Below are positions 2,046 through 52,429 of a stretch of DNA of 52,429 nucleotides, piece by piece. The stretch is from positions 1 to 52,429 of IMG/VR virus record IMGVR_UViG_3300049489_000174; one strand, written 5' to 3'. A model generated the notes under the pieces. The model had not been told where the DNA came from. It did not search any database and was given only the letters and a program-made list of their open reading frames with translations. The stretch comes from a virus. Lineage: Duplodnaviria > Caudoviricetes. The translations under genes and the position numbers were made by a program. Position 1 is the first letter of the stretch. Each line of letters opens with the position of its first letter.

Positions 2046-2660
2046 ATGCGTAAGCCCACCCGTCGTATCAACGACACGTTCAACAACAATACTGCACTAA
2101 AGATAATTGCTTTAGTGCAGCACACTCCAACACCTACAATTCACGAAGTTAGAAAACTTCTTGAGAGTGTTGGTAAGATTATTCGTACTAACTACGTTCG
2201 TCGTGTTGATGTTGTAGGATTGAAGAAGACTCATAAAATCAAAAGTATCGAAGAAGGAAAGACAAAGGCCCGCTGTAAGGCTGGTGATATTGTTAAGGCT
2301 CTGCATAGTATTAATAGTAAGTTAGGGCATAATCGTAAATGTATTATTATAGATGAAGTATCTAAAACATTAATGCCTATGGCTGTATCTCTGGAGAGTA
2401 ACCATGGCACTGATGCAACGGTTAGGCGGTTTACTCCGCAGCCTAACTTTGCACCACATGTATTAAAGCAAGCAGAAGCGCGCATTAATCGTGTTAAACC
2501 TCCTACCACTGAAGTAACACCACCTACTAGAGCCGAGAAAAAGCGTACAGAGCAGCTAATCGCTGAACGCGAAGCCCGTCGCTCGCAGTTACAAGAAGAA
2601 CGTAAGATTGCACTACAAAAGCTCGCTGATAAGATTGACAAGTTAAAAGCTCAGGTGTAA
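2046..2660 (+). CDS. hypothetical basic protein with C-terminal coiled coil
   Basis: ATG 2046 preceded by AAGGA; K/R-rich. Confidence 0.75.
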   Translation: MRKPTRRINDTFNNNTALKIIALVQHTPTPTIHEVRKLLESVGKIIRTNYVRRVDVVGLKKTHKIKSIEEGKTKARCKAGDIVKALHSINSKLGHNRKCIIIDEVSKTLMPMAVSLESNHGTDATVRRFTPQPNFAPHVLKQAEARINRVKPPTTEVTPPTRAEKKRTEQLIAEREARRSQLQEERKIALQKLADKIDKLKAQV

Positions 2661-2895: not shown

Positions 2896-3163
2896 ACAAT
2901 GCAACGCTATTCATCATTCGCAATTAATTCAATGCACGAGTCTACTGATGGCGAGTATGTAAAATACTCTGATGTAGAAGCATTGATTGCTCGCAATAAT
3001 ATTTTAGAAAAGTAATGGATAGATTTATAGGAAATATTGGTGATAAAAAGCTATTAAATGCCAAGTTAAATGTATTAAAGCCATATGCCACTACTGATAC
3101 AGAAGCAAGATCAGTATGTGAATGTATTGAACTATTACTTTTACTACCTTGAAAGGATGATAT

Positions 3164-10754: not shown

Positions 10755-11327
10755 ATGCTAAACAGTAATGACATATTAAAGAAGTTAGAATGTGGCGGTA
10801 TCAAAGCGTACTACAAGAATACACCTGTAAGTAAGGATTTTCTTACAATCAATCCTAACAGTGTTGATGTTACTTTAGGTGCTAGTGTACTACGTATTGA
10901 TCCTAGTGTCGAAGTTATTGATGTATTAGATAATACTTCGTTACGATGGTACGAAGATATTATTCGTCCAGAGGGTATGCTTATTATGCCAGATGAGTTT
11001 CTGCTTGCTACAGTAAATGAAAGATTTTCTTGTGGTAATGCTATTACTCAAATGTACGAAGGTCGCAGTACCATCGCTCGTATAGGCTTATTCACACATA
11101 TATGTGCTGGATTTGGTGACATTGGTTTCGACGGAAATTTTACACTAGAGTTAAAGAATGTAAGTAACAAACCAATTAAGGTATATCCTGATATTCGTAT
11201 TGGACAAGTAGCATTTATAGAGACTAAGAGTTTTCTATCTAATGAAGAATTATATCTTGGTGCTTATCGTCATCAGTATGATCGACCATTGCCACCTGTT
11301 CTAGGTGAAGATCGGATGTTCCAATGA
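10755..11327 (+). CDS. dcd: dCTP deaminase
   Basis: NPNSVDVTLG, EGRSTIARIGL, AGFGDIGFDGNFTLEL, RIGQ motifs. Confidence 0.92.
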   Translation: MLNSNDILKKLECGGIKAYYKNTPVSKDFLTINPNSVDVTLGASVLRIDPSVEVIDVLDNTSLRWYEDIIRPEGMLIMPDEFLLATVNERFSCGNAITQMYEGRSTIARIGLFTHICAGFGDIGFDGNFTLELKNVSNKPIKVYPDIRIGQVAFIETKSFLSNEELYLGAYRHQYDRPLPPVLGEDRMFQ

Positions 11328-14117: not shown

Positions 14118-14190
14118 CCACCTGTAGCTCAGCGGTTAGAGCAGCGGCCTTATAAGCCGTTGGTCGATGGTTCGATTCCATCCAGGTGGA
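14118..14190 (+). tRNA. tRNA-Ile(UAU)
   Basis: acceptor CCACCTG/CAGGTGG; D arm GCTC/GAGC; anticodon stem GCGGC/GCCGT with loop CT-TAT-AA (anticodon 14151-53); T arm GATGG-TTCGATT-CCATC; discriminator A; CCA not encoded in register. Confidence 0.92.
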
Positions 14191-14209
14191 CTCCACCCTA
14201 GGAAACAAA

Positions 14210-15031
14210 ATGACTATTGAAGCTAAGATTATCTGTGACTCACAAGCATTCACAGCTGGTCCAAGACTAACAACGTTCGTACTTCGTTATCCACGATTCA
14301 TACATGCCGAGTTTATGACTCATCGTATGTTTAGTAGGAATGCATCTAGTAGTCGTGCTATTCCTATAGAGAAGATGATTGAAATAATTATTAATGATCC
14401 GGCTATGCCAATATATTGGGGCAAGAATCAGAGCGGCATGCAAGCTAAAGAAGAACTAGATGCCGAGAAGATTGCATATGCTAAGTCTATGTGGCTCGCT
14501 GCTATGAATGATGCAGTAGCTAATACAAAAGTTATGCTTGCATTAGGACTACATAAACAGATTACTAATCGTATCTTAGAACCTTGGCAACACATTACAG
14601 TTGTGTGTTCTGCTACTACTTACAAGAACTTCTTTAAGCTACGTTGCCATCCTGACGCACAACCAGAGATTGCTGAACTAGCACGTCAGATGCGTGATCT
14701 ATACAATAGCACTGAGCCTAAAGAAACAAAGTTCCATCTTCCATTTATCAAAGATGATGAACTACTAGAACATGACTCAGATACTTTGATTAAGTGCTCC
14801 GTCGCCCGTTGTGCCAGAGTATCATATCTAAATCATGATGGTACTAATCCAAGTATAGAAAAAGACATTGTACTACATGATCGTCTATGTGCTAACAATC
14901 CAGGCCACTTCTCACCTTTTGAGCACGTAGCAGAAGCACAAGATTATGCAAACCGTAATAAGTTTGATAAGAACTTTCAAGGTTGGGTACAATATCGTTC
15001 AACATTCAAGCATGAAAGCGGTCTACTATGA
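14210..15031 (+). CDS. thyX: FAD-dependent thymidylate synthase
   Basis: THRMFSRNASSSRAIP signature; HKQ..NR.LEPW; AQPEI; HFSPFEH. Confidence 0.92.
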   Translation: MTIEAKIICDSQAFTAGPRLTTFVLRYPRFIHAEFMTHRMFSRNASSSRAIPIEKMIEIIINDPAMPIYWGKNQSGMQAKEELDAEKIAYAKSMWLAAMNDAVANTKVMLALGLHKQITNRILEPWQHITVVCSATTYKNFFKLRCHPDAQPEIAELARQMRDLYNSTEPKETKFHLPFIKDDELLEHDSDTLIKCSVARCARVSYLNHDGTNPSIEKDIVLHDRLCANNPGHFSPFEHVAEAQDYANRNKFDKNFQGWVQYRSTFKHESGLL

Positions 15032-15651
15032 AAACTTTACTCGTCGGTATCTGCGGTAAGAAAGGTAGTGGTAAGACACTATTTGCTAATAATCTAGAGT
15101 TAGATTTGAATACTCACAACAGTTACCGTCGTTTACAGGTAGATCGTTATTCATTTGCACAGCCTTTGAAGCAAGTATGTCATATACTATTTGGTGGTGA
15201 TGAGCAAGGATGGTTTGGTACTGACGAGGATAAGAATAAGAAACTACCATTCTTCGCTGATAAGTGTAGCAAAGTACCGACGTACCGTCGTGCTATGCAA
15301 GTAGTAGGTACTGATCTATTTCGTAACAATCTATATCAGAGCATCTGGACTGATATAGCATATAATACAATCTTCAACTTCCCTGAGGAACTACAACCAG
15401 AGATTACTATTATCGACGATATACGTTTTAAGAATGAAGCTGAGTTCGTAACTAACAATGGTGGCATCACTGTATATATTGAGCGCAATACTAATACACC
15501 AACTGACTGGCATGCATCAGAACAGATGCACAAAGGTATGCATAAGTTCGATTACTGTTTCGACGATGTTGGTAATCGTTGGGTGCATGAGGCTTCTATT
15601 GTATCACACGACGTAATTAACAGGATCGAAAAGGCACATGAAACACCGTGA
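15028..15651 (+). CDS. deoxynucleoside monophosphate kinase
   Basis: GICGKKGSGKT P-loop, SFAQPLK, R..MQ.VGTD, IDDIRFKNE, HASE. Confidence 0.9.
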   Translation: MKTLLVGICGKKGSGKTLFANNLELDLNTHNSYRRLQVDRYSFAQPLKQVCHILFGGDEQGWFGTDEDKNKKLPFFADKCSKVPTYRRAMQVVGTDLFRNNLYQSIWTDIAYNTIFNFPEELQPEITIIDDIRFKNEAEFVTNNGGITVYIERNTNTPTDWHASEQMHKGMHKFDYCFDDVGNRWVHEASIVSHDVINRIEKAHETP

Positions 15652-45105: not shown

Positions 45106-45929
45106 ATACCATTTTCCTCGTCGTCTATCGTCATACGTGCTGCTTGCTCTTTCAGTGAGTCGTGCAGTAATCGTATCTTTACATCTTCACCACGTATCTT
45201 TATTGTATCGCCAGGAGTGAATGGTATGTTTTCTACTGGTCTTGTTTTAGGTTGTAACTTCTCTATCTCTGATGCAACGGTTTCTAGGTACTGTGCTGGA
45301 ACGTATTTAGCTATAATGTCAGTTACACCAGAGAATATCTTTTCTATAGTCTCAGGAGTTATTTCATTCATCTTACTCATCTTCTCAGTTATCTGAGAGA
45401 TTTTCTCACACAGTATTGTTACTTGCGCTATAAGATCAATAGGTATTTGCCCTGTATTGACCTTCATCACGATTTCACTTAACATCAAACGCATCATCGC
45501 TTGTTCGGCGTCTAGCTGAATCTTAGTTGGTGAACGTAGTATAGCTTCGTAGCGTTCTTGCAGACTGGGATCAGAGAATAAATTAGTATACATATTAACT
45601 TTCTTTAAGTGCTTCTTACAAGTTAGTGAATTACTATATGTTGTGCATCTTTGATTGTATTTGTTTATCGCTACGCAGCGACGACGGCCTTTGTAATCTA
45701 CTTCCGGCAGTACGCCGGTACGTTCGTATATATTCCACATCAACTCATTTGCTCTTACATTACCTACTGCAACACCTAACTGTATCGCTGATAACAGTTC
45801 TGGATTATTACCATTGCATACTTGTACTATGCCTATGTACTCTAGATCAGTAACTAAATCTCTATTCTCAGTAATTATTTCTTTCCAATTACCGCCTTGC
45901 AGTTCAGTAGTTACAATATTACTTTCCAT
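45102..45929 (-). CDS. terS: putative terminase small subunit with CCCH zinc finger
   Basis: immediately upstream of terL; RCVAINKYNQRCTTYSNSLTCKKH; helical oligomerisation region. Confidence 0.6.
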   Translation of the reverse strand: MESNIVTTELQGGNWKEIITENRDLVTDLEYIGIVQVCNGNNPELLSAIQLGVAVGNVRANELMWNIYERTGVLPEVDYKGRRRCVAINKYNQRCTTYSNSLTCKKHLKKVNMYTNLFSDPSLQERYEAILRSPTKIQLDAEQAMMRLMLSEIVMKVNTGQIPIDLIAQVTILCEKISQITEKMSKMNEITPETIEKIFSGVTDIIAKYVPAQYLETVASEIEKLQPKTRPVENIPFTPGDTIKIRGEDVKIRLLHDSLKEQAARMTIDDEENGI

Positions 45930-45935
45930 ATAAGA

Positions 45936-45970
45936 ATTATACTTGACAATTACTATGTGTCAAGTATAAT
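45936..45970. promoter_or_regulatory. palindromic bidirectional promoter (TTGACA-N16-TATAAT on both strands)
   Basis: ATTATACTTGACA-N9-TGTCAAGTATAAT perfect 13-bp inverted repeat between divergent genes. Confidence 0.88.
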
Positions 45971-46005
45971 GTAACAGTTAGTATTCTACTAGCAATGGAG
46001 GAATT

Positions 46006-46398
46006 ATGCAACGAGTTGTTAATGAGTGGAAGTATGTGCCGGATAGGACTGATCTGATTATTCAGTCATTTAAGACTGGAGAAGTAGTTATATCGTTCTA
46101 TGGTATTAAACCAGATTATATCATGGCTCTGCGTCATCTACGCTGGTGCTTTGAGTCAAGTAAAGGACATGCCTATGCTACTGATCTTACAGCAGAGATT
46201 CCTAAACTTCTAAACTGCGGTACGCATAAAGTGTACTTATGGAAGTATCTATCTTATCTAATAACAGGTAAAGTTACTTCTGCATGGGTACGTATTAATC
46301 TATCTGAGTTTAGATTCGGTGAAGGTTCTATACTAGACAGCTCTGGATCAAGTATACTTTGGACGGACTTGGCTCCACTCCAGTTAAAAACTTCTTGA
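46006..46398 (+). CDS. degenerate HNH-endonuclease-like protein (one module)
   Basis: NEW...D...IKPD...LRW...KGHAY...VYLWKYL...SEFR follows phage HNH architecture but lacks the catalytic His/Asn; SD GGAGGA. Confidence 0.55.
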   Translation: MQRVVNEWKYVPDRTDLIIQSFKTGEVVISFYGIKPDYIMALRHLRWCFESSKGHAYATDLTAEIPKLLNCGTHKVYLWKYLSYLITGKVTSAWVRINLSEFRFGEGSILDSSGSSILWTDLAPLQLKTS

Positions 46399-46422
46399 CT
46401 TTTGTATAAAGTCGGGTATAAT
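46395..46422 (+). promoter_or_regulatory. sigma70-type promoter TTGACT-N16-TATAAT
   Basis: same spacer family as 6017 and 13048. Confidence 0.85.
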
Positions 46423-46442
46423 AGATTTACGGAGAGCCTATT

Positions 46443-47621
46443 ATGCCGCGACTTTTCAAGTCTTGGGTTAATACAGTTGATGATGTTTCACTTCTATGTG
46501 TGACTGTAGATAACAAGACTATATACAATGCTCTGATGCCATCTAGTGTTGGTTCCATTGTGGCAGAGTATAATTGGAAATACATCAAGGGTGTATTCTT
46601 CTGTAAAGATGGTACGTTATTAGAATTGTTATCGAATGTTTACGGCTACGAAGGTAAGGTACGTAGAATAGAAAGTACAGATGACTACTTTCCTCGTAAT
46701 ATACAATCTAATTTGAGTAACTTTAATGGTAACTTCGGTACTTTGATACCACGGGCCAAAGGCGATTTTGTCATATCTCGCGTAGACTGTCATCCTAGAA
46801 TGAAGTATAAGAACAAGAATGAATGGTGCTGGCTACCCGTTAATATACAGAATAACAAGTTTGTTATGGTACGTATTAACAAGTGTAATGCACATTTTCT
46901 TAATAAAAACGCTGTATTAATCAATAATAAACTACATTTATATCCTGATTTCAAAGGATTTGATGGTAAATTTCATGGAAAACAGCTTACTTCTGTGATA
47001 TTTAAGGCTGTTTTTGGTATAAAAGGTTATAATAAGCATGTAAGTTTAATAGATTATACTGATTTTAGAGTGGATTTTAAGCAACAATGCTTCGTTTCTG
47101 GTAAGAATATACGTAATAATTGGTCTAAATTACAGGATAATATGTGGTTATTAGAGATAGTTATTAGTAATACTAAGCGTTGGTTGCCTGATACTTTGGC
47201 TTATCGGAACAAGAGTACAGGTAGAGTTTATGCTATTTTTAATAAGTGTTATGATGAGAATTTGTTTACTTGGAATGACGGTGCTATGACTATCAACGTG
47301 TACGACGATCTTAATACCATTGCAGCACCTATGTTCATAGCACGCGATAACAAGATGCCAGTTGATAATATATACATTCCTGCTAGAATGGGTAAGTATT
47401 ACCAGAAGGCTGTAGATACAGGTAACTTCAAATCTAGAGCTGCCTTTGAGCATACTGAGTTATCTACGCATCGTGGTGGTAGAGTTATGATGACCAAAGC
47501 TAAACTAATATCCAGAAGAAAAGTAAGTGCTGCTGTAGTATATGAATATGCTACAGGTAAGTATGCACTAGACTTGCGTCCTGAATCAATTATCGTCGGT
47601 TCTACTAATAAGGAAGCATAA
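46443..47621 (+). CDS. protein with three degenerate HNH-like modules
   Basis: modules end in DYFPRNI, DFRVDF and DLRPESI (compare canonical DNRRxNL); no LHR or VDH histidines. Confidence 0.5.
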   Translation: MPRLFKSWVNTVDDVSLLCVTVDNKTIYNALMPSSVGSIVAEYNWKYIKGVFFCKDGTLLELLSNVYGYEGKVRRIESTDDYFPRNIQSNLSNFNGNFGTLIPRAKGDFVISRVDCHPRMKYKNKNEWCWLPVNIQNNKFVMVRINKCNAHFLNKNAVLINNKLHLYPDFKGFDGKFHGKQLTSVIFKAVFGIKGYNKHVSLIDYTDFRVDFKQQCFVSGKNIRNNWSKLQDNMWLLEIVISNTKRWLPDTLAYRNKSTGRVYAIFNKCYDENLFTWNDGAMTINVYDDLNTIAAPMFIARDNKMPVDNIYIPARMGKYYQKAVDTGNFKSRAAFEHTELSTHRGGRVMMTKAKLISRRKVSAAVVYEYATGKYALDLRPESIIVGSTNKEA

Positions 47622-47624
47622 TCT

Positions 47625-47885
47625 ATGTCACTAGAATACGCACTCAAAGTCAACGAAGAACTAAAGAAAGGTCTAGTATCAGATAACGAGGCACATATTC
47701 TTTTACGTTGGTACCGTAGTATGCCATTTCTTGATGGTATGAAGGTACAACGGTACGTCGAACGTTGTACTAATATCGTCGAGGCTGAGTTGTTTCTTGA
47801 ACGTCTTTGTATTATGCATGAATGTGACCCTTTCTTTAGAGCGGCCCATATTCCTTTTGAGCTTCAGTTACAAGGAGAACAGTGA
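47625..47885 (+). CDS. hypothetical protein
   Basis: SD AAGGA. Confidence 0.7.
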   Translation: MSLEYALKVNEELKKGLVSDNEAHILLRWYRSMPFLDGMKVQRYVERCTNIVEAELFLERLCIMHECDPFFRAAHIPFELQLQGEQ

Positions 47886-47889
47886 TAGT

Positions 47890-48138
47890 ATGCCACATAT
47901 AACAGAGAAGTCTGTAACTAACTATTCTAATAGAGTACAGTCTAAACTACTCAAAGGCCCATGGTCAGCAGATGAAGATTCTACACTAATACACTTAGTG
48001 TCAAAGTTCAACGCTGAGCATACTTACAAAATAGGTAATGTTAACAGAATGTATGCTATAATATCAGATACTATGCATCGGTCTATTTCTTCTTGTCAAC
48101 GACGGTACGTCGAACTAAAGAACTTAGGGAGAGCGTAA
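47890..48138 (+). CDS. single Myb/SANT-domain DNA-binding protein
   Basis: KGPWSADEDSTLIHLV...YAIISDTMHRSISSCQRRYVEL matches the Myb consensus KGpWtxEEDxxL...Ia..l.RS..qC..Rw; SD AAGGAG before ATG 47890. Confidence 0.8.
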   Translation: MPHITEKSVTNYSNRVQSKLLKGPWSADEDSTLIHLVSKFNAEHTYKIGNVNRMYAIISDTMHRSISSCQRRYVELKNLGRA

Positions 48139-48139
48139 T

Positions 48140-48475
48140 ATGCCTAAACTCGAATACATGCTCAATGGGGATACCATTGAGGCATCATCAGATATTAAAC
48201 TTGCATTCTTTTGTCCGGGATGCGAGTGCCATCATGCTTATACTATTAAGGCATATAATAACGTCGGGCCGACGTGGCAGTGGAATAACAGTATGGATAA
48301 ACCTACTTTCTCTCCATCTTTACTTGTAAACTTTACACAGTGGGATGAAGAACAGAAAGTTGGTGTTAAGAGAGTATGCCATCTATTTATGAACGATGGT
48401 AAGATACAGTTCTTGAGTGATTGTACACATAAGCTCGCCGGTACGACGGTTGATATGCTTGATGTGGAAGTGTGA
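48140..48475 (+). CDS. DUF6527-family protein
   Basis: FFCPGC..HH, W.WN...PTFSPSLLV, CHLFM.DGKIQFLSDCTH.LAG.TV. Confidence 0.75.
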   Translation: MPKLEYMLNGDTIEASSDIKLAFFCPGCECHHAYTIKAYNNVGPTWQWNNSMDKPTFSPSLLVNFTQWDEEQKVGVKRVCHLFMNDGKIQFLSDCTHKLAGTTVDMLDVEV

Positions 48476-48476
48476 T

Positions 48477-48815
48477 ATGGCTCCTAACCTAGATCACGAT
48501 GATATAGTAGAGCATAATGAGCACTTATTCAAGCAGTACGTAGAACCATACTTACTGACACCAGAGAAATATTACTATTACTTACAACCGTCACAACATA
48601 TCGACAGTGCAACAGAAGTAGTTATAGTTTCACGCTCTAAACTAATAGACTATCTTAAGACGACGATATTTTATGCTGCCTCATTATCAGAAGATATTAT
48701 GATTGATGACTTTCTTGTAGTACACTTTGGTGCAGAAGCTAAGATTAACAGCAGTGGCAATGTTGTGGTTGATGTTAGACCAGATGAGGCGATTTCTACT
48801 GTTAGGAGATTATAA
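48477..48815 (+). CDS. hypothetical protein
   Basis: ATG 48477 directly after the previous stop. Confidence 0.65.
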   Translation: MAPNLDHDDIVEHNEHLFKQYVEPYLLTPEKYYYYLQPSQHIDSATEVVIVSRSKLIDYLKTTIFYAASLSEDIMIDDFLVVHFGAEAKINSSGNVVVDVRPDEAISTVRRL

Positions 48816-49301
48816 GTATAATTGGTATAATAGATTATATAATTTATCTGCGATTTTATGCTCGATATACCTTTGGTGCTTCGGGTGATTTGTTTTATTG
48901 TATGATGATACTATGATACTGCTTTACTGATGTGCGATGATTCATTGGTACTGCGGTACGTCGGTACTTTGTTATGTAGATATGATAATGATGGGTATAA
49001 TTGGTATAATAGATGTTGCTTGCATTGCGCAATGTTACGACGGTGCCTACGGCCCTTTGTAAGCGTGTGTTAGCATACCCTCCCCCATTGGCACGTTGTG
49101 TGCTTGTCATATGTTATCGCTTGACATACATTCAATGCATACATTGGCACGTTATGTGCTAGTGTCATATCAACGTATCACGATGGACCGATGGTACGAC
49201 GGTACGTTGACGGGCCTGCGGACGCGTTATGATAGGGCCATGCAGCCAACGTGCTGCGCTAACCATCCAACGGTGCAGCAAGCACCAAGGACATGTCAGC
49301 C

Positions 49302-49583
49302 ATGAGTGCCCATAACATCCTCATCATCCTTCCCGGCGCCAAGACAAAGATAGAGGAAATGCAGGATGCATCATATGCATTTATCGCAGCACAGGGAGCG
49401 AAGGGACTGAAACGCAATGATGCAGACGCTTCACATGATGCAGATATCATCATCGACGCTGCCAAGCCGATCGTTGAGGAACAAGCACGAAAGCATCTGC
49501 GCAACGCAGTAGGCAAGGATACATGGCAGGATCGCGCTGCGCTACTTAAGCGCGCGCTACAATTGTCCCGTAGTGTCCGCTAA
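49302..49583 (+). CDS. GC-rich small helical hypothetical protein
   Basis: AAGGA SD; Ala-rich helical; precedes the structured RNA (alternative start 49293). Confidence 0.65.
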   Translation: MSAHNILIILPGAKTKIEEMQDASYAFIAAQGAKGLKRNDADASHDADIIIDAAKPIVEEQARKHLRNAVGKDTWQDRAALLKRALQLSRSVR

Positions 49584-49603
49584 TCCGCCGTTATTGTAAC
49601 ATA

Positions 49604-49905
49604 TCCGCGCCAGAGCGTTGCCAACGGTTAAATATACGTCGGCACGCAAGTCCCCGTATGGGCAGGCGTGGAACAACATATACGTAGCACAACGGTACAA
49701 TGGTCAATATTGACCGACGTACCGTTGTATCCATTCCCATGCCCTAACAAGGGAACGAATGGAGTTTGTACGTTTCAACGTGGTGGCAGTACCACAACAT
49801 GCGAAGGCTAAAGCATGTGCAAACGTACCGTAAAGCATTGCGACAACATGCCATAATGAGTCACTAGGGGAGAATAGTACCTAGTAGCAACGGACCATTG
49901 TGCTA
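49604..49905 (+). ncRNA. putative multi-helix structured non-coding RNA
   Basis: series of 5-10 bp helices with G-U pairs on the + strand; no ORF; ends at a strong hairpin. Confidence 0.55.
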
Positions 49906-49950
49906 ATAATCCTACGAGGATCATTCGATCTTCGTAGGATTATTGTTTTG
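49905..49950 (+). terminator. long hairpin / intrinsic terminator
   Basis: AATAATCCTACGAGGATC-attc-GATCTTCGTAGGATTATT followed by GTTTT. Confidence 0.75.
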
Positions 49951-50016
49951 TATCATACTACAATAATCGCAAAATATCATACACAACAATAATCCTACGA
50001 TACAAAGGACGACGAT

Positions 50017-50235
50017 ATGCCTGCACCAGTAAATCCATCATTGAATAAAAAAACAAAGCAATGGACAGTACAGCGCATCCGTACAAAACAAGGGCGCATT
50101 GTACGTGATGGCGATAGAATACATCGTGGCAAAGGTCCATGTTCGGAGGTGAAGCGTAAAGCGTACCGTAGGTACGCACATCGGACGGGATTTAATGCTG
50201 AGTATGTTCGTTGCTCGTCGTTACAGATGGCATAA
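50017..50235 (+). CDS. small very basic hypothetical protein
   Basis: AAGGA SD 7 nt upstream; K/R-rich. Confidence 0.4.
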   Translation: MPAPVNPSLNKKTKQWTVQRIRTKQGRIVRDGDRIHRGKGPCSEVKRKAYRRYAHRTGFNAEYVRCSSLQMA

Positions 50236-50409
50236 TTGCCTAGAATATAAATCCCGCCAAGCCGGCCCAAAGTCTGCCGGCGGACCCGAGGGATTGCCCG
50301 ATAAGGCCGTTTCCCGTCGATCCTGCGGACTTTGAGGGGCTGACCATTGCCGTCGTCCGTCGGGGCTGAGATCGCATTTTCTTAGCATTTATGTCTAGGA
50401 ATACTTTTA

Positions 50410-50465
50410 TACTGTGGTACTGCGGTACTGCGGTACTGCGGTACTGCGGTACGACGGTTCAGTGG
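50410..50465. repeat. tandem 8-bp repeat array TACTGCGG (4 perfect + 3 degenerate), iteron-like
   Basis: tactgtgg-(tactgcgg)4-tacgacgg-ttcagtgg. Confidence 0.9.
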
Positions 50466-50537
50466 TGTTTATACTGCTGTGAAACTTTGTACAGCTATGC
50501 TTTTATCAGTAGGATTTACTATCAGAATTACCTACGT

Positions 50538-50787
50538 TCGTCGGTACGACGGTACAGCGGGTGTTTTAACAGAAGTGGGCCAGATAGGTACTATACTGAT
50601 ATATATGTTACTTACTATTGTTATAAATTAAAAAAAGAAAAAAAGGGAAAAAAGGGTGTAAGGTTTTGTTTACACTTTTTTTTAGAAAAAAAGATTTAGA
50701 GAGAGATCAAACCTAAGTAACATATATATCTATATAGTACAGTAGGTGGCCCACTTACCGTCAAACTTCGGACCGTCGTACCTACGA
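50538..50787. other. putative replication origin: ~75-bp imperfect inverted repeat around an A/T-tract core
   Basis: arms 50538-50614 and 50714-50787 share AAGTGGGCCA, GTACTATA, GATATATATGTTACTTA and GGTACGACGGT; core of A and T runs; long non-coding region. Confidence 0.7.
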
Positions 50788-51066
50788 TCATCGATCCTAA
50801 TGACATAGCCCACCCCCCGCAGCGTATCAAAATTCCTAGCATCATGCATTCTACTAGGCATTATCATCTCATCAACATTATATAAACGTACAGCAAATCA
50901 AAGTTAGCATTGTTGCAAAACTATATAAACTACTGATAAAACCCAGACAGCGTCTAGGTAATCCTAGCACCTGTTACATCCCAGGAAAGCACTTATGTGC
51001 CCTTCAATCTTCTCTGATCTATTTCTGACCCACTACATCGAAGATAACAAGCTAGGACTATTACTG

Positions 51067-51094
51067 TTGAAAGCAGTAGATCCGCTGTTATACT
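51067..51094 (+). promoter_or_regulatory. promoter TTGAAA-N16-TATACT with TG extended -10
   Basis: upstream of the small-gene cluster; same 16-bp spacing. Confidence 0.6.
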
Positions 51095-51155
51095 TTCAGT
51101 GCTGGGAGGAAATTATCTCTGTCTCACAAAAATCTAATATCTAAGGAACAAACAA

Positions 51156-51434
51156 ATGAAAATCAAATGTGATTATACACTCCACAGCGGTACAGTTGTC
51201 AACAATTTCACAGCAAATGTAGAAAATATGAAAGACTTTCATGAGTATATGCGGCAAGGGTTTATTGTTAACGGTGATATTAAGTCGTTCACGATCCTAG
51301 AAATCGACGGAACAAAGATAAATCATCCAGTCGAAGAGAATGTACTTGCTGTACAAAAGCAGAAAGAATCACTGTTAAAGAATGCAAAGATAGGCGATAA
51401 ATGGAAGACTAGAAATGGTATTGTACCAATGTAA
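51156..51434 (+). CDS. hypothetical protein
   Basis: SD AAGGA. Confidence 0.7.
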   Translation: MKIKCDYTLHSGTVVNNFTANVENMKDFHEYMRQGFIVNGDIKSFTILEIDGTKINHPVEENVLAVQKQKESLLKNAKIGDKWKTRNGIVPM

Positions 51435-51444
51435 TTAAACTTAT

Positions 51445-51825
51445 ATGAATATATATCATGTATATTCATATAAGTTTAATTACATTGGTACTGACGGTGT
51501 AAAATATCTTCTTACAACCACAGTCGATGGTATATACGATATTGATGCAACTAAACCGCAGGATCTAGACATCTTCGAACCGTTGAACCAAAGCATCACA
51601 GGAACGCTGATCGAAGATAAAAAGAAAGTCGATCAAATGCTAAAAGAAATAGAAACAGTATCTGGAAACTTACATACAATCTACGAAGTCGTATATCGTC
51701 GTACCGACGGCTCAATGGTACAAGTAAAAGTAGAGCATAAAGTATTAATACCACTGTTAAATGCAATAACAGAAGCGCATGGTACTGATTGTCTGCGGTC
51801 CGTCGATCAACAATATACACATTAA
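51445..51825 (+). CDS. hypothetical protein
   Basis: 126-aa ORF in operon. Confidence 0.65.
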   Translation: MNIYHVYSYKFNYIGTDGVKYLLTTTVDGIYDIDATKPQDLDIFEPLNQSITGTLIEDKKKVDQMLKEIETVSGNLHTIYEVVYRRTDGSMVQVKVEHKVLIPLLNAITEAHGTDCLRSVDQQYTH

Positions 51826-51915: not shown

Positions 51916-52429
51916 ATGCAACATTCCATCATCACCAGCCCAAAAGAGTTCTGTGAACATTATCATGCTTGCGTAACAGGGTACAATTTCGCAGTACAAT
52001 ATGAAACAATGGAAGAAGTATGGAATAAGTGTGAACGACCTGATTGGATGATTTGGATATTGAATACGTTACAATGGAACTATAATAAGCAGAAACTAGC
52101 AGCAAAGTTCGTCAGAGAAATCTGGCATCTATTGAAGGATCAACGTAGCAAAGATGCTATTATTGCTATTGAAAATGATTCTTTAACACCTGAAATCAAA
52201 AATGCTGCTGCCGCTGCTGCCGCTGCTGCTGCCGCTGCTGCCGCTGATGCTTATGCTTATGCTTATGCTGCCGCTGCTGCCGCTGCTGCTGCTGCCGCTG
52301 ATGCTTATGCTGCTGCTGCTGCTTATGCCGCTGATGCTTATGCTTATGCTTATGCTGCCGCTGCTGCCGCTGCAAGAAAACAAATGAAATTAAAGCAAGT
52401 AGCAATTATCAAAGAGTTTATTGGTGTTA
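51916..52429 (+). CDS. poly-Ala (A/Y/D) tract protein; continues across the junction to stop at 107
   Basis: SD AAGGAG; MQHSIITSPKEFCEHYHAC...WNKCERPDWMIW...LLKDQRSKDAI...(A/Y/D)n...RKQMKLKQVAIIKEFIGVNPFAKV. Confidence 0.85.
   Translation, partial: MQHSIITSPKEFCEHYHACVTGYNFAVQYETMEEVWNKCERPDWMIWILNTLQWNYNKQKLAAKFVREIWHLLKDQRSKDAIIAIENDSLTPEIKNAAAAAAAAAAAAAADAYAYAYAAAAAAAAAAADAYAAAAAYAADAYAYAYAAAAAAARKQMKLKQVAIIKEFIGV
52204..52374 (+). repeat. codon-phased microsatellite (GCT/GCC/TAT/GAT units)
   Basis: GCTGCCGCT and GCTTAT units encoding the Ala/Tyr/Asp tract. Confidence 0.9.

Follow-up and report, generated by a model that had tools for sequence, protein, structure and literature searches.

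Few structured non-coding RNAs (ncRNAs) of phages are understood, and those that are control antitermination, immunity, packaging or host takeover. The subject here is a stretch of 52,429 nucleotides (nt), the whole of virus record IMGVR_UViG_3300049489_000174 and hereafter the window, which comes from an uncultured freshwater siphovirus-like phage. At positions 49604-49950 of its plus strand lies a compact multi-junction element that matches no known RNA family and has direct comparative support: in a related phage, one of its hairpins has been kept through matched double mutations, which makes it probably a new structured RNA. By the available comparative test the element is real, with action as DNA a serious rival to RNA. 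About an even chance can be given to the view that 49604-49950 is a selected single-strand structure, most likely of plus-strand RNA, which would persist as a terminator-capped, partner-binding ncRNA with 49780-49795 as its variable specificity element.

Several described systems resemble this locus in part. GOLLD and ROOL are ornate phage-associated RNAs of roughly 500-800 nt that form a wide family. Like the element, they are GC-rich, multi-junction, non-coding phage stretches recognised by structure. In contrast to them, the element has no match in Rfam, is ~300 nt long, does not lie beside transfer RNA (tRNA) genes (the sole tRNA is at 14118), and occurs in one genome and one partial relative. 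The early-operon RNA signals of lambdoid phages (nut boxB and HK022 put) are hairpins of early transcripts upstream of a terminator, as the element would be. However, the element is several times larger, is ~590 nt from the promoter motif and follows a gene, and we know of no N-like partner for it. A stem that is kept while the hairpin sequence differs between relatives would fit a specificity element.

In ColE1-type copy-control RNAs, the hairpin tips are the specificity determinants. The element would share with RNA I/RNA II the form of a multi-hairpin RNA beside repeat-rich replication or control DNA, but a strong terminator and a protein gene separate it from the arrays, and no antisense transcript is supported. 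The order of RNA, terminator and small protein gene is that of the ToxIN type III loci; unlike those, the element has no tandem repeats, and the downstream protein of 72 amino acids (aa) has no family. At the DNA level, the ribbon-helix-helix ParB (omega) of plasmid pSM19035 binds contiguous 7-base-pair (bp) repeats in mixed orientation, including two forward and two reverse (PMC9499535). The heptads resemble positions 49689-49728 of the window, where short units follow each other without gaps, two forward and two reverse. Here, however, the unit is 8 bp and not 7, no ParA or recognisable ribbon-helix-helix protein was found, and only one of six domains is built in this way.

Folding and domain organisation

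Fold strength was expressed as z-scores against dinucleotide-preserving shuffles of the same sequence. On the plus strand, with RNA parameters, 49584-49950 has a minimum free energy of −139 kcal/mol, compared with −99.7 ± 6.3 for the shuffled sequences (z −6.27); none of 100 shuffles folded as well. The corresponding z-score of the minus strand is −5.38, and DNA parameters give −7.27 (plus) and −5.64 (minus). Two neighbouring controls show no excess structure, namely the body of the upstream open reading frame (ORF), 49293-49583 (z +0.71), and the leader, 49015-49300 (z −1.03). The fold excess is thus local to the stretch with the element. When the genome was scanned in 200-nt windows with 100-nt steps and correction for GC content, the one at 49601 ranked fourth on the plus strand and fifth on the minus strand.

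The fold resolves into the following domains, and z-scores are given for the plus and then the minus strand. The centroid structure retains the same domains, and every domain folds alone.

49604-49672, plus strand: Domain 1, three-way junction with closing stem 49604-11/49665-72 (8 bp), a long bulged hairpin and a short hairpin (z −3.6; −3.0)
49689-49728, plus strand: Domain 2, stem 49689-98/49719-28 (10 bp) and a further 6 bp around palindrome 49702-15, composed of 2+2 inverted 8-bp GGTAC-type units (z −5.2; −6.1)
49730-49763, plus strand: Domain 3, stem 49730-36/49757-63 (7 bp) around CCCT/AGGG (4 bp), with a 5/3 internal loop (z −3.5; −2.6)
49768-49828, plus strand: Domain 4, three-way junction with closing stem 49768-75/49821-28 (z −2.7; −1.9)
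49780-85/49790-95 and 49797-802/49813-18, plus strand: inner hairpins of Domain 4, the first variable and compensated
49829-49842, plus strand: Domain 5, small 5-bp hairpin, weak by itself (ACTAGG/CCTAGT pairing also confirmed in the element)
49852-49902, plus strand: Domain 6, bulged hairpin with an 11-nt loop, in block 49845-49897 (Domains 5 and 6 together, z −2.0; −0.1)
49904-22/49927-45, plus strand: terminal hairpin of 19 bp, then TTTTG, an intrinsic-terminator-like 3' end reaching 49950 (z −10.0; −8.1)

The initial annotation of this DNA, made from the sequence alone, had listed pairings throughout the segment, and all of them were found where it had placed them. Two need qualification. 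TAGCA/TGCTA can pair, but the minimum-energy fold prefers 49852-58/49896-902, and the terminal hairpin, given as 18 bp, measures 19 bp. Folding far beyond shuffled controls answers the z-score check that the same annotation had proposed. It had also called the segment GC-rich in an AT-rich genome, which agrees with a G+C content of about 0.50-0.53 over 49100-49850 compared with 0.393 for the genome, and had taken G-U pairs to favour the plus strand. The plus-strand fold contains 11 G-U pairs among 121, and these would become A-C mismatches on the minus strand; the preference is slight, with summed domain energies of −130.5 (plus) and −119.3 kcal/mol (minus), a modest advantage of ~11 kcal/mol.

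Might the fold be a functionless product of locally high GC content and repeats? A GC-rich island does fold better in absolute terms, and parts of this one are built from the palindromic core GTAC. The z-scores come, however, from shuffles that preserve dinucleotides, and the ORF body and leader are equally GC-rich yet have no excess structure. Compensatory double changes such as those described below are also unexpected in the absence of selection, and we regard this explanation as very improbable.

Some short repeats lie in or beside the linkers of the element. ACAACAU occurs three times (49673-49679, 49794-49800 and 49843-49849), and two of these copies lie within an imperfect direct repeat of 17 nt (at 49786 and 49835). 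The sequence AUAUACGU is present twice, at 49632-49639 and 49678-49685. A second ACAACAUGC could rival the first for GCAUGU at 49813-18 and give an alternative fold.

Compensatory changes in a related phage

A run labelled as a freshwater sediment metagenome, which may be where the record came from, is the only one that contains all sampled words of the stretch; two other freshwater runs contain parts. Contigs of the runs, all of them DNA contigs, were aligned to the stretch at 80% likeness, and runs X2 and X3 left parts of it without coverage. The informative relative is record 13 of X3, a contig of 254 nt with a depth of 5.2 that aligns to 49719-49897. Relative to the window it lacks 1 nt, at 49787, and has 12 substitutions, every one a transition. 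The deletion and ten of the substitutions fall within 49777-49797; the other two substitutions are at 49818, the partner of 49797, and at 49844.

Pairs were scored against the structure predicted from the window alone. Four pairs have changed on both sides and are still paired (49780/95, 49781/94, 49783/92 and 49797/49818), the substitution at 49790 turns a G-U into a G-C pair, and the changes at 49777, 49779 and 49844 are unpaired, so that no predicted pair is broken. When 12 transitions were placed at random over the 179 positions, none of 200,000 trials reached four double pairs (the maximum was three, in 55 trials), and only 3.4% of placements broke no pair. Covariation, which the initial annotation had named as a check, is thus seen in two helices of one relative, as expected of a structured RNA under selection.

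The remainder of the aligned part is nearly invariant. Domain 3 is identical in the relative, as are the 53 nt of 49845-49897 and a further block of 58 nt. A hairpin that has changed at the majority of its 12 paired positions while staying paired, inside a near-identical block, is the pattern expected of a specificity determinant. In the unaligned end of the X3 contig, the 30 letters before 49719 keep 8 letters of the outer 5' arm of Domain 2, and the tip differs yet is self-complementary.

Coding potential and known RNA families

Internal ORFs of the element encode only 31-49 aa. Scored by codon usage learned from 12 long phage genes, 49584-49904 has no preferred frame, and its G+C is flat over codon positions, unlike both flanking ORFs. 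The absence of a preferred frame, the 1-nt deletion at 49787 in the relative and the shortness of the ORFs together indicate that the element is non-coding.

Could the element be an overlooked member of a described class, for example a ribozyme or intron, a tRNA-like element or type III antitoxin RNA, or the terminus of a mobile element? The GC-rich island 48946-50461 is bounded by similar 23-nt direct repeats and has a superficially insertion-like appearance. However, these repeats are the same 8-bp arrays that are found elsewhere, and the island is kept at the same place in relatives, so it is not a recent insertion. At the Rfam gathering score, the sole match in the whole window is a tRNA at 14118-14190. 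With the threshold relaxed to E≤10, 48800-50500 gives 12 weak matches, none of them inside 49584-49920 (the best are microRNA models on the 49932-50000 hairpin), and 49570-49960 searched alone gives none. No curated Rfam family was therefore assigned, whether tRNA or transfer-messenger RNA (tmRNA), introns, ribozymes, riboswitches, phage pRNA or GOLLD/ROOL/HEARO. ARAGORN reports one tRNA-Ile elsewhere in the window and nothing at the element.

Specific features of these classes are lacking as well. No split ORF or intron model match points to a group I or group II intron or an insertion, and the island is kept in relatives; as for a ToxI-like type III antitoxin, there are no tandem repeats in 49584-49950, and the 72-aa ORF has no family. 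A missed known class is on this evidence extremely improbable. Two earlier assertions gain from these searches: that the segment holds no tRNA, tmRNA or ribozyme core, for which the Infernal-type check against Rfam found no match in 49570-49960 even at E≤10, and that it is a non-coding, densely paired element of no Rfam family, which is borne out by the frame, fold and Rfam tests.

Putative transcription signals and a possible role in cis

Several signals on the plus strand would place the element in an early transcript.

48815-48835, plus strand: promoter-like double −10 motif, copy 1, with GTATAATTGGTATAAT core
48994-49014, plus strand: promoter-like double −10 motif, copy 2, matching 10 of 12 consensus positions, with TG before the −10; likely transcript start
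49074-49085, plus strand: C-rich box CATACCYYCCCC, 63 nt past the promoter motif, single copy in the genome
49932-50000, plus strand: alternative hairpin with 26-nt arms (92% complementary), sharing the 3' arm of the terminator, which pairs with 49975-50000

The promoter-like motif GTATAATNGGTATAAT has two matches in the genome, compared with 0.01 expected. It recurs in phage locus L005 (about 2080-2100, minus strand) and, as GTATAATGAGTATAAT, in L007 (about 2965-2990, minus strand), where TTGACT precedes the second TATAAT by 16 nt. The phages that share the double −10 motif have terminases that are only about 44-54% identical, and early promoters of the group are probably of this type. The C-rich box CATACCYYCCCC is also found on the minus strands of L005 (about 2005-2016) and L006 (about 2298-2309); in both the window and L005 it follows the promoter motif by 63-67 nt. 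The box holds an anti-Shine-Dalgarno-like core, CCUCC. Its pairing with the element is no better than that of shuffled sequences (54 of 300 shuffles were as good). On the minus strand there is only a promoter-like site matching at 9 of 12 positions (49980-49952), and no antisense transcript is supported.

The 3' end has the form of an intrinsic terminator, as predicted from its sequence: 19 pairs, six of them G-C, a 4-nt loop, and then TTTTGTATCA. The terminator that had been annotated at the end of the element is therefore present as a terminator-like hairpin with a T run. The 13-mer AATAATCCTACGA occurs three times without mismatch, directly at 49905-49917, inverted at 49932-49944, and directly again at 49988-50000. 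The middle copy can pair with either neighbour and so form the terminator hairpin or the hairpin with 26-nt arms, which ends 17 nt before the start codon of the 72-aa ORF.

These features also bear on the possibility that the element is a structured spacer of the early mRNA between the 93-aa and 72-aa genes and acts only in cis, with no function in trans. It might protect the upstream message from 3' exonucleases, supply duplexes for RNase III-type processing, or control read-through into the 72-aa gene. The element lies exactly between two coding-looking ORFs of the same orientation and has a terminator-like end, and the 3' arm of this terminator can re-pair downstream, given the 26-nt arms and the triple 13-mer. 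On the other hand, a junction-rich structure of ~300 nt with identical blocks of 53 nt and 58 nt exceeds the needs of a stabiliser or terminator. Because the terminator precedes the alternative partner, the latter cannot serve as a classical antiterminator ahead of the termination decision, and there is no match to a known riboswitch or leader family. We consider a purely cis role unlikely.

Repeat arrays and a possible role of the DNA

The surroundings of the element are rich in an 8-bp unit, NNCGGTAC, repeated head to tail in contiguous arrays.

48946-48968, plus strand: array of three contiguous 8-bp GGTAC units
49193-49205, plus strand: array of two 8-bp units
50410-50461, plus strand: array of about six contiguous 8-bp units, where contigs of the source run break
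50537-50556, plus strand: array of two to three 8-bp units
15274-15290, minus strand: array of the 8-bp unit
50588-50740: AT-rich stretch with an inverted repeat, following the arrays

On the plus strand, CGGTAC is present in 25 copies, compared with 7.2 expected. The initial annotation had spoken of a genome-wide 8-bp motif that builds one stem of the element. The motif is real and does build a stem, but it is not evenly spread, since 17 of the 25 copies lie within 45716-51188. Two 8-bp units and then two inverted copies make up Domain 2, and a GGTAC repeat is also present in the stem that closes Domain 4. The compensated hairpin 49780-95 and Domains 1, 3, 5 and 6 contain no GGTAC unit. Contiguous short repeats, direct or inverted and clustered, are accordingly a property of Domain 2 and the flanks only. 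Origin iterons seldom have a period of 8 bp, which is reminiscent of the contiguous repeats to which small ribbon-helix-helix proteins bind.

Could the element act as DNA? In such a case, a small phage DNA-binding protein would recognise the contiguous 8-bp units, which would form an operator, centromere-like site or set of origin iterons, or the hairpins would belong to a single-stranded DNA origin, and the RNA fold would be a by-product. The clustering of CGGTAC, the contiguous arrays, the 2+2 inverted units of Domain 2 and the AT-rich inverted repeat at 50588-50740 all favour this, as do the likeness to the ParB sites of pSM19035 (PMC9499535) and the repeated motif that L005 has of its own at matching places. 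Moreover, folding with DNA parameters is as significant as folding with RNA parameters. The stem of Domain 2, and possibly the closing stem of Domain 4, may act as duplex DNA sites, to judge from their repeats.

The compensated hairpin is harder to reconcile with sites of this kind. It has no GGTAC unit, and its sequence shifts while its pairing stays, which is the signature of a single-strand stem and not of a sequence-specific duplex site. The unit is also missing from four other domains (1, 3, 5 and 6), and the element has a polarity, owing to its G-U pairs and T run. The turning points of GC skew are 45953 and 21592, away from the element, but in this genome skew tracks the direction of the genes. 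Searches of the neighbouring ORFs recognised no initiator, ParA/ParB or ribbon-helix-helix family. An action of the element as DNA seems unlikely overall but is a serious rival to the RNA reading. The suggestion of an adjacent origin, also made in the initial annotation, is only plausible for the 8-bp arrays, which could equally be operator or centromere-like arrays.

Searches for homologs and the islands of more distant relatives

How widely is the element distributed? No match was obtained with blastn for 48900-50500 among phages or for 49584-49950 among plasmids. Purine/pyrimidine-tolerant patterns drawn from both identical blocks had no matches in viral, metagenome or genome contigs. A covariance model of 49764-49905 finds only itself in a search of the window and 10 related loci, and blastn and nhmmer searches of 48801-50700 against 82 loci gave nothing significant. 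Single protein queries of viral contigs with the 96-aa ORF, the 392-aa ORF and the terminase found no match. A looser hairpin pattern matched one phage sequence (contigs L001 and L002), which was rejected as unrelated; the hairpin there is antisense to genes and its surroundings are unlike the window.

More distant relatives can be recognised by their terminases. The terminase family, at ~42-55% identity among 120 listed, is found on contigs of ~50 kb; 38 sequences picked from the 120 were aligned and 80 loci were fetched. Two of these, L005 and L006, with terminases about 50% identical, keep the order of a small-terminase-like gene, a divergent gene and a 392-aa gene. At the same syntenic place they have a GC-rich, largely non-coding island of ~1.5-2 kb with a helical Ala-rich ORF and a small basic ORF. 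One segment of the L005 island folds well (z −4.35), but folding in that locus is often stronger on the antisense strand. Between these islands and the window, only the promoter motif and the C-rich box are common and nothing else aligns; we regard the islands as positional analogues only.

A proposed partner-binding RNA with a variable hairpin

What would the element do as an RNA? The plus-strand reading rests on the neighbouring plus-strand genes, the upstream promoter motif, the hairpin with its T run, the G-U pairs and the energy advantage. An early transcript would start at the double −10 motif at 48994-49014, with 48815-48835 as a second copy, and would carry a leader, the 93-aa gene (49302-49583) and the RNA of six compact domains (two three-way junctions, three hairpins and one bulged hairpin), ending at the hairpin of 49904-49950. 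Termination would cap this RNA with a very stable 3' hairpin, so that the folded module could outlast the coding part. The module could then act as an ncRNA that binds a protein or nucleic acid partner through invariant, largely single-stranded blocks, namely 49845-49897 and the ACAACAU linkers, while the fast-changing yet always paired hairpin 49780-49795 would set specificity.

A more far-reaching proposal is made tentatively, with chances well short of even: the element may represent an undescribed class of phage early ncRNA, ~300 nt long and trans-acting, formed as a chain of hairpins and junctions with a terminator cap, in which the invariant blocks bind a partner and the hypervariable 49780-95 (perhaps with the tip of 49689-728) sets specificity between related phages. 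Such an RNA could, for example, determine immunity or replication incompatibility, or serve as a decoy for an RNA-binding or defence protein of the host.

Several observations weigh against a plus-strand, partner-binding RNA. Folding alone separates neither RNA from single-stranded DNA nor, clearly, the plus from the minus strand, and Domain 2 is slightly better folded on the minus strand. A single short contig with a depth of 5.2 supplies the comparative support, which concerns 2 of about 14 helices; the remaining helices are invariant in that relative and hence uninformative either way, and Domain 1 lies outside the aligned part. Outside 49777-49797, only 2 of 158 aligned positions differ, while the sequence 5' of 49719 is less than 80% alike. 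Because of this contrast, the block may be a recently exchanged module and not the product of long purifying selection. The U run after the terminal hairpin is short, with four T and then G. The 8-bp repeat in Domain 2 and the closing stem of Domain 4, together with the flanking arrays, points to a DNA-binding protein. Among the runs listed as containing the stretch, none is on record as RNA, and we infer transcription, strand and ends. Judged by the searches above, the RNA is not recognisably conserved past very close relatives.

The setting of the element is a conserved yet fast-evolving early control island beside unusual 8-bp arrays. A real, trans-acting RNA would represent a new class and offer a way to learn how related phages discriminate each other; an element that is just a structured spacer or DNA site would belong to ordinary phage regulation. 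The very narrow known distribution limits both the evidence and its reach.

Flanking genes

The element is flanked by two small genes, the second of which is followed by another folded stretch.

49302-49583, plus strand: gene of a 93-aa protein (96 aa if the start is at 49293), with AAGGA 10 nt upstream; frame 0 clearly best
50017-50235, plus strand: gene of a very basic 72-aa protein; frame 0 best
50236-50406, plus strand: second GC-rich folded stretch, after the 72-aa ORF (z −2.82; 1 of 200 shuffles as good)

The 93-aa protein has homologs P0002 (89% identity), P0124 (42%) and P0125 (41-44%), encoded on contigs of 853-2264 bp (P0002 on 2264 bp from JGI, P0124 on 853 bp from ENA, P0125 on 1762 bp from Logan, with P0126 on 965 bp from Logan). 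By its relatives it is a real small family with no known domain, and it has no Pfam or PHROG family. P0002 as a query had no match in metagenome contigs, and P0124 and P0125 had none in phages or the fetched loci. For the 72-aa protein, no homolog and no Pfam or PHROG family was found. For the small proteins, Pfam at E≤5 gave only sub-threshold matches, and the ESM Atlas models of the 93-aa and 72-aa proteins were of low confidence, with no usable relatives. The complex of the RNA with the 93-aa protein that the initial annotation had proposed is a candidate whose sole basis is adjacency. The anti-defence, packaging and replication-control roles that it had suggested are likewise only candidates.

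Genome and further observations

The record is a single contig of 52,429 bp with 39.3% G+C, and its two ends overlap, differing solely by repeat length. The phage is tailed. Large terminase, portal, head protease/major head protein and tape measure are encoded on the minus strand, while the plus strand encodes a helicase, a primase-helicase and a family A DNA polymerase. The nearest terminase in a search of 50,697 deposited phage records is ~31% identical. The stretch with the element sits in a block of plus-strand genes that begins at 46006, right after the divergence from the terminase genes.

An ORF runs across the record junction (51916-52428 and on into 1-~110) and contains long Ala/Asp/Tyr low-complexity repeats (GCTGCC/GCTTAT-type DNA); their copy number is uncertain in the assembly because the record ends differ in repeat length. 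A tRNA-Ile(UAU) gene at 14118-14191 lies just upstream of genes for a ThyX-type thymidylate synthase, a deoxynucleotide monophosphate kinase and a primase (14186-15651), and a dCTP deaminase-like gene is found at 10755-11327. Together these form a nucleotide-metabolism cluster that might bear on DNA modification.

Finally, a near-perfect palindrome at 51423-51491 has 34-nt arms that are 97% complementary, with 1 nt between them and outer ends GTACC/GGTAC. It reaches from the end of ORF 51156-51434 into the beginning of ORF 51445-51825, and contigs of the source run break there. On both strands this is the best-folding 200-nt window of the genome, and it might serve as an origin or as a site of resolution or recombination.

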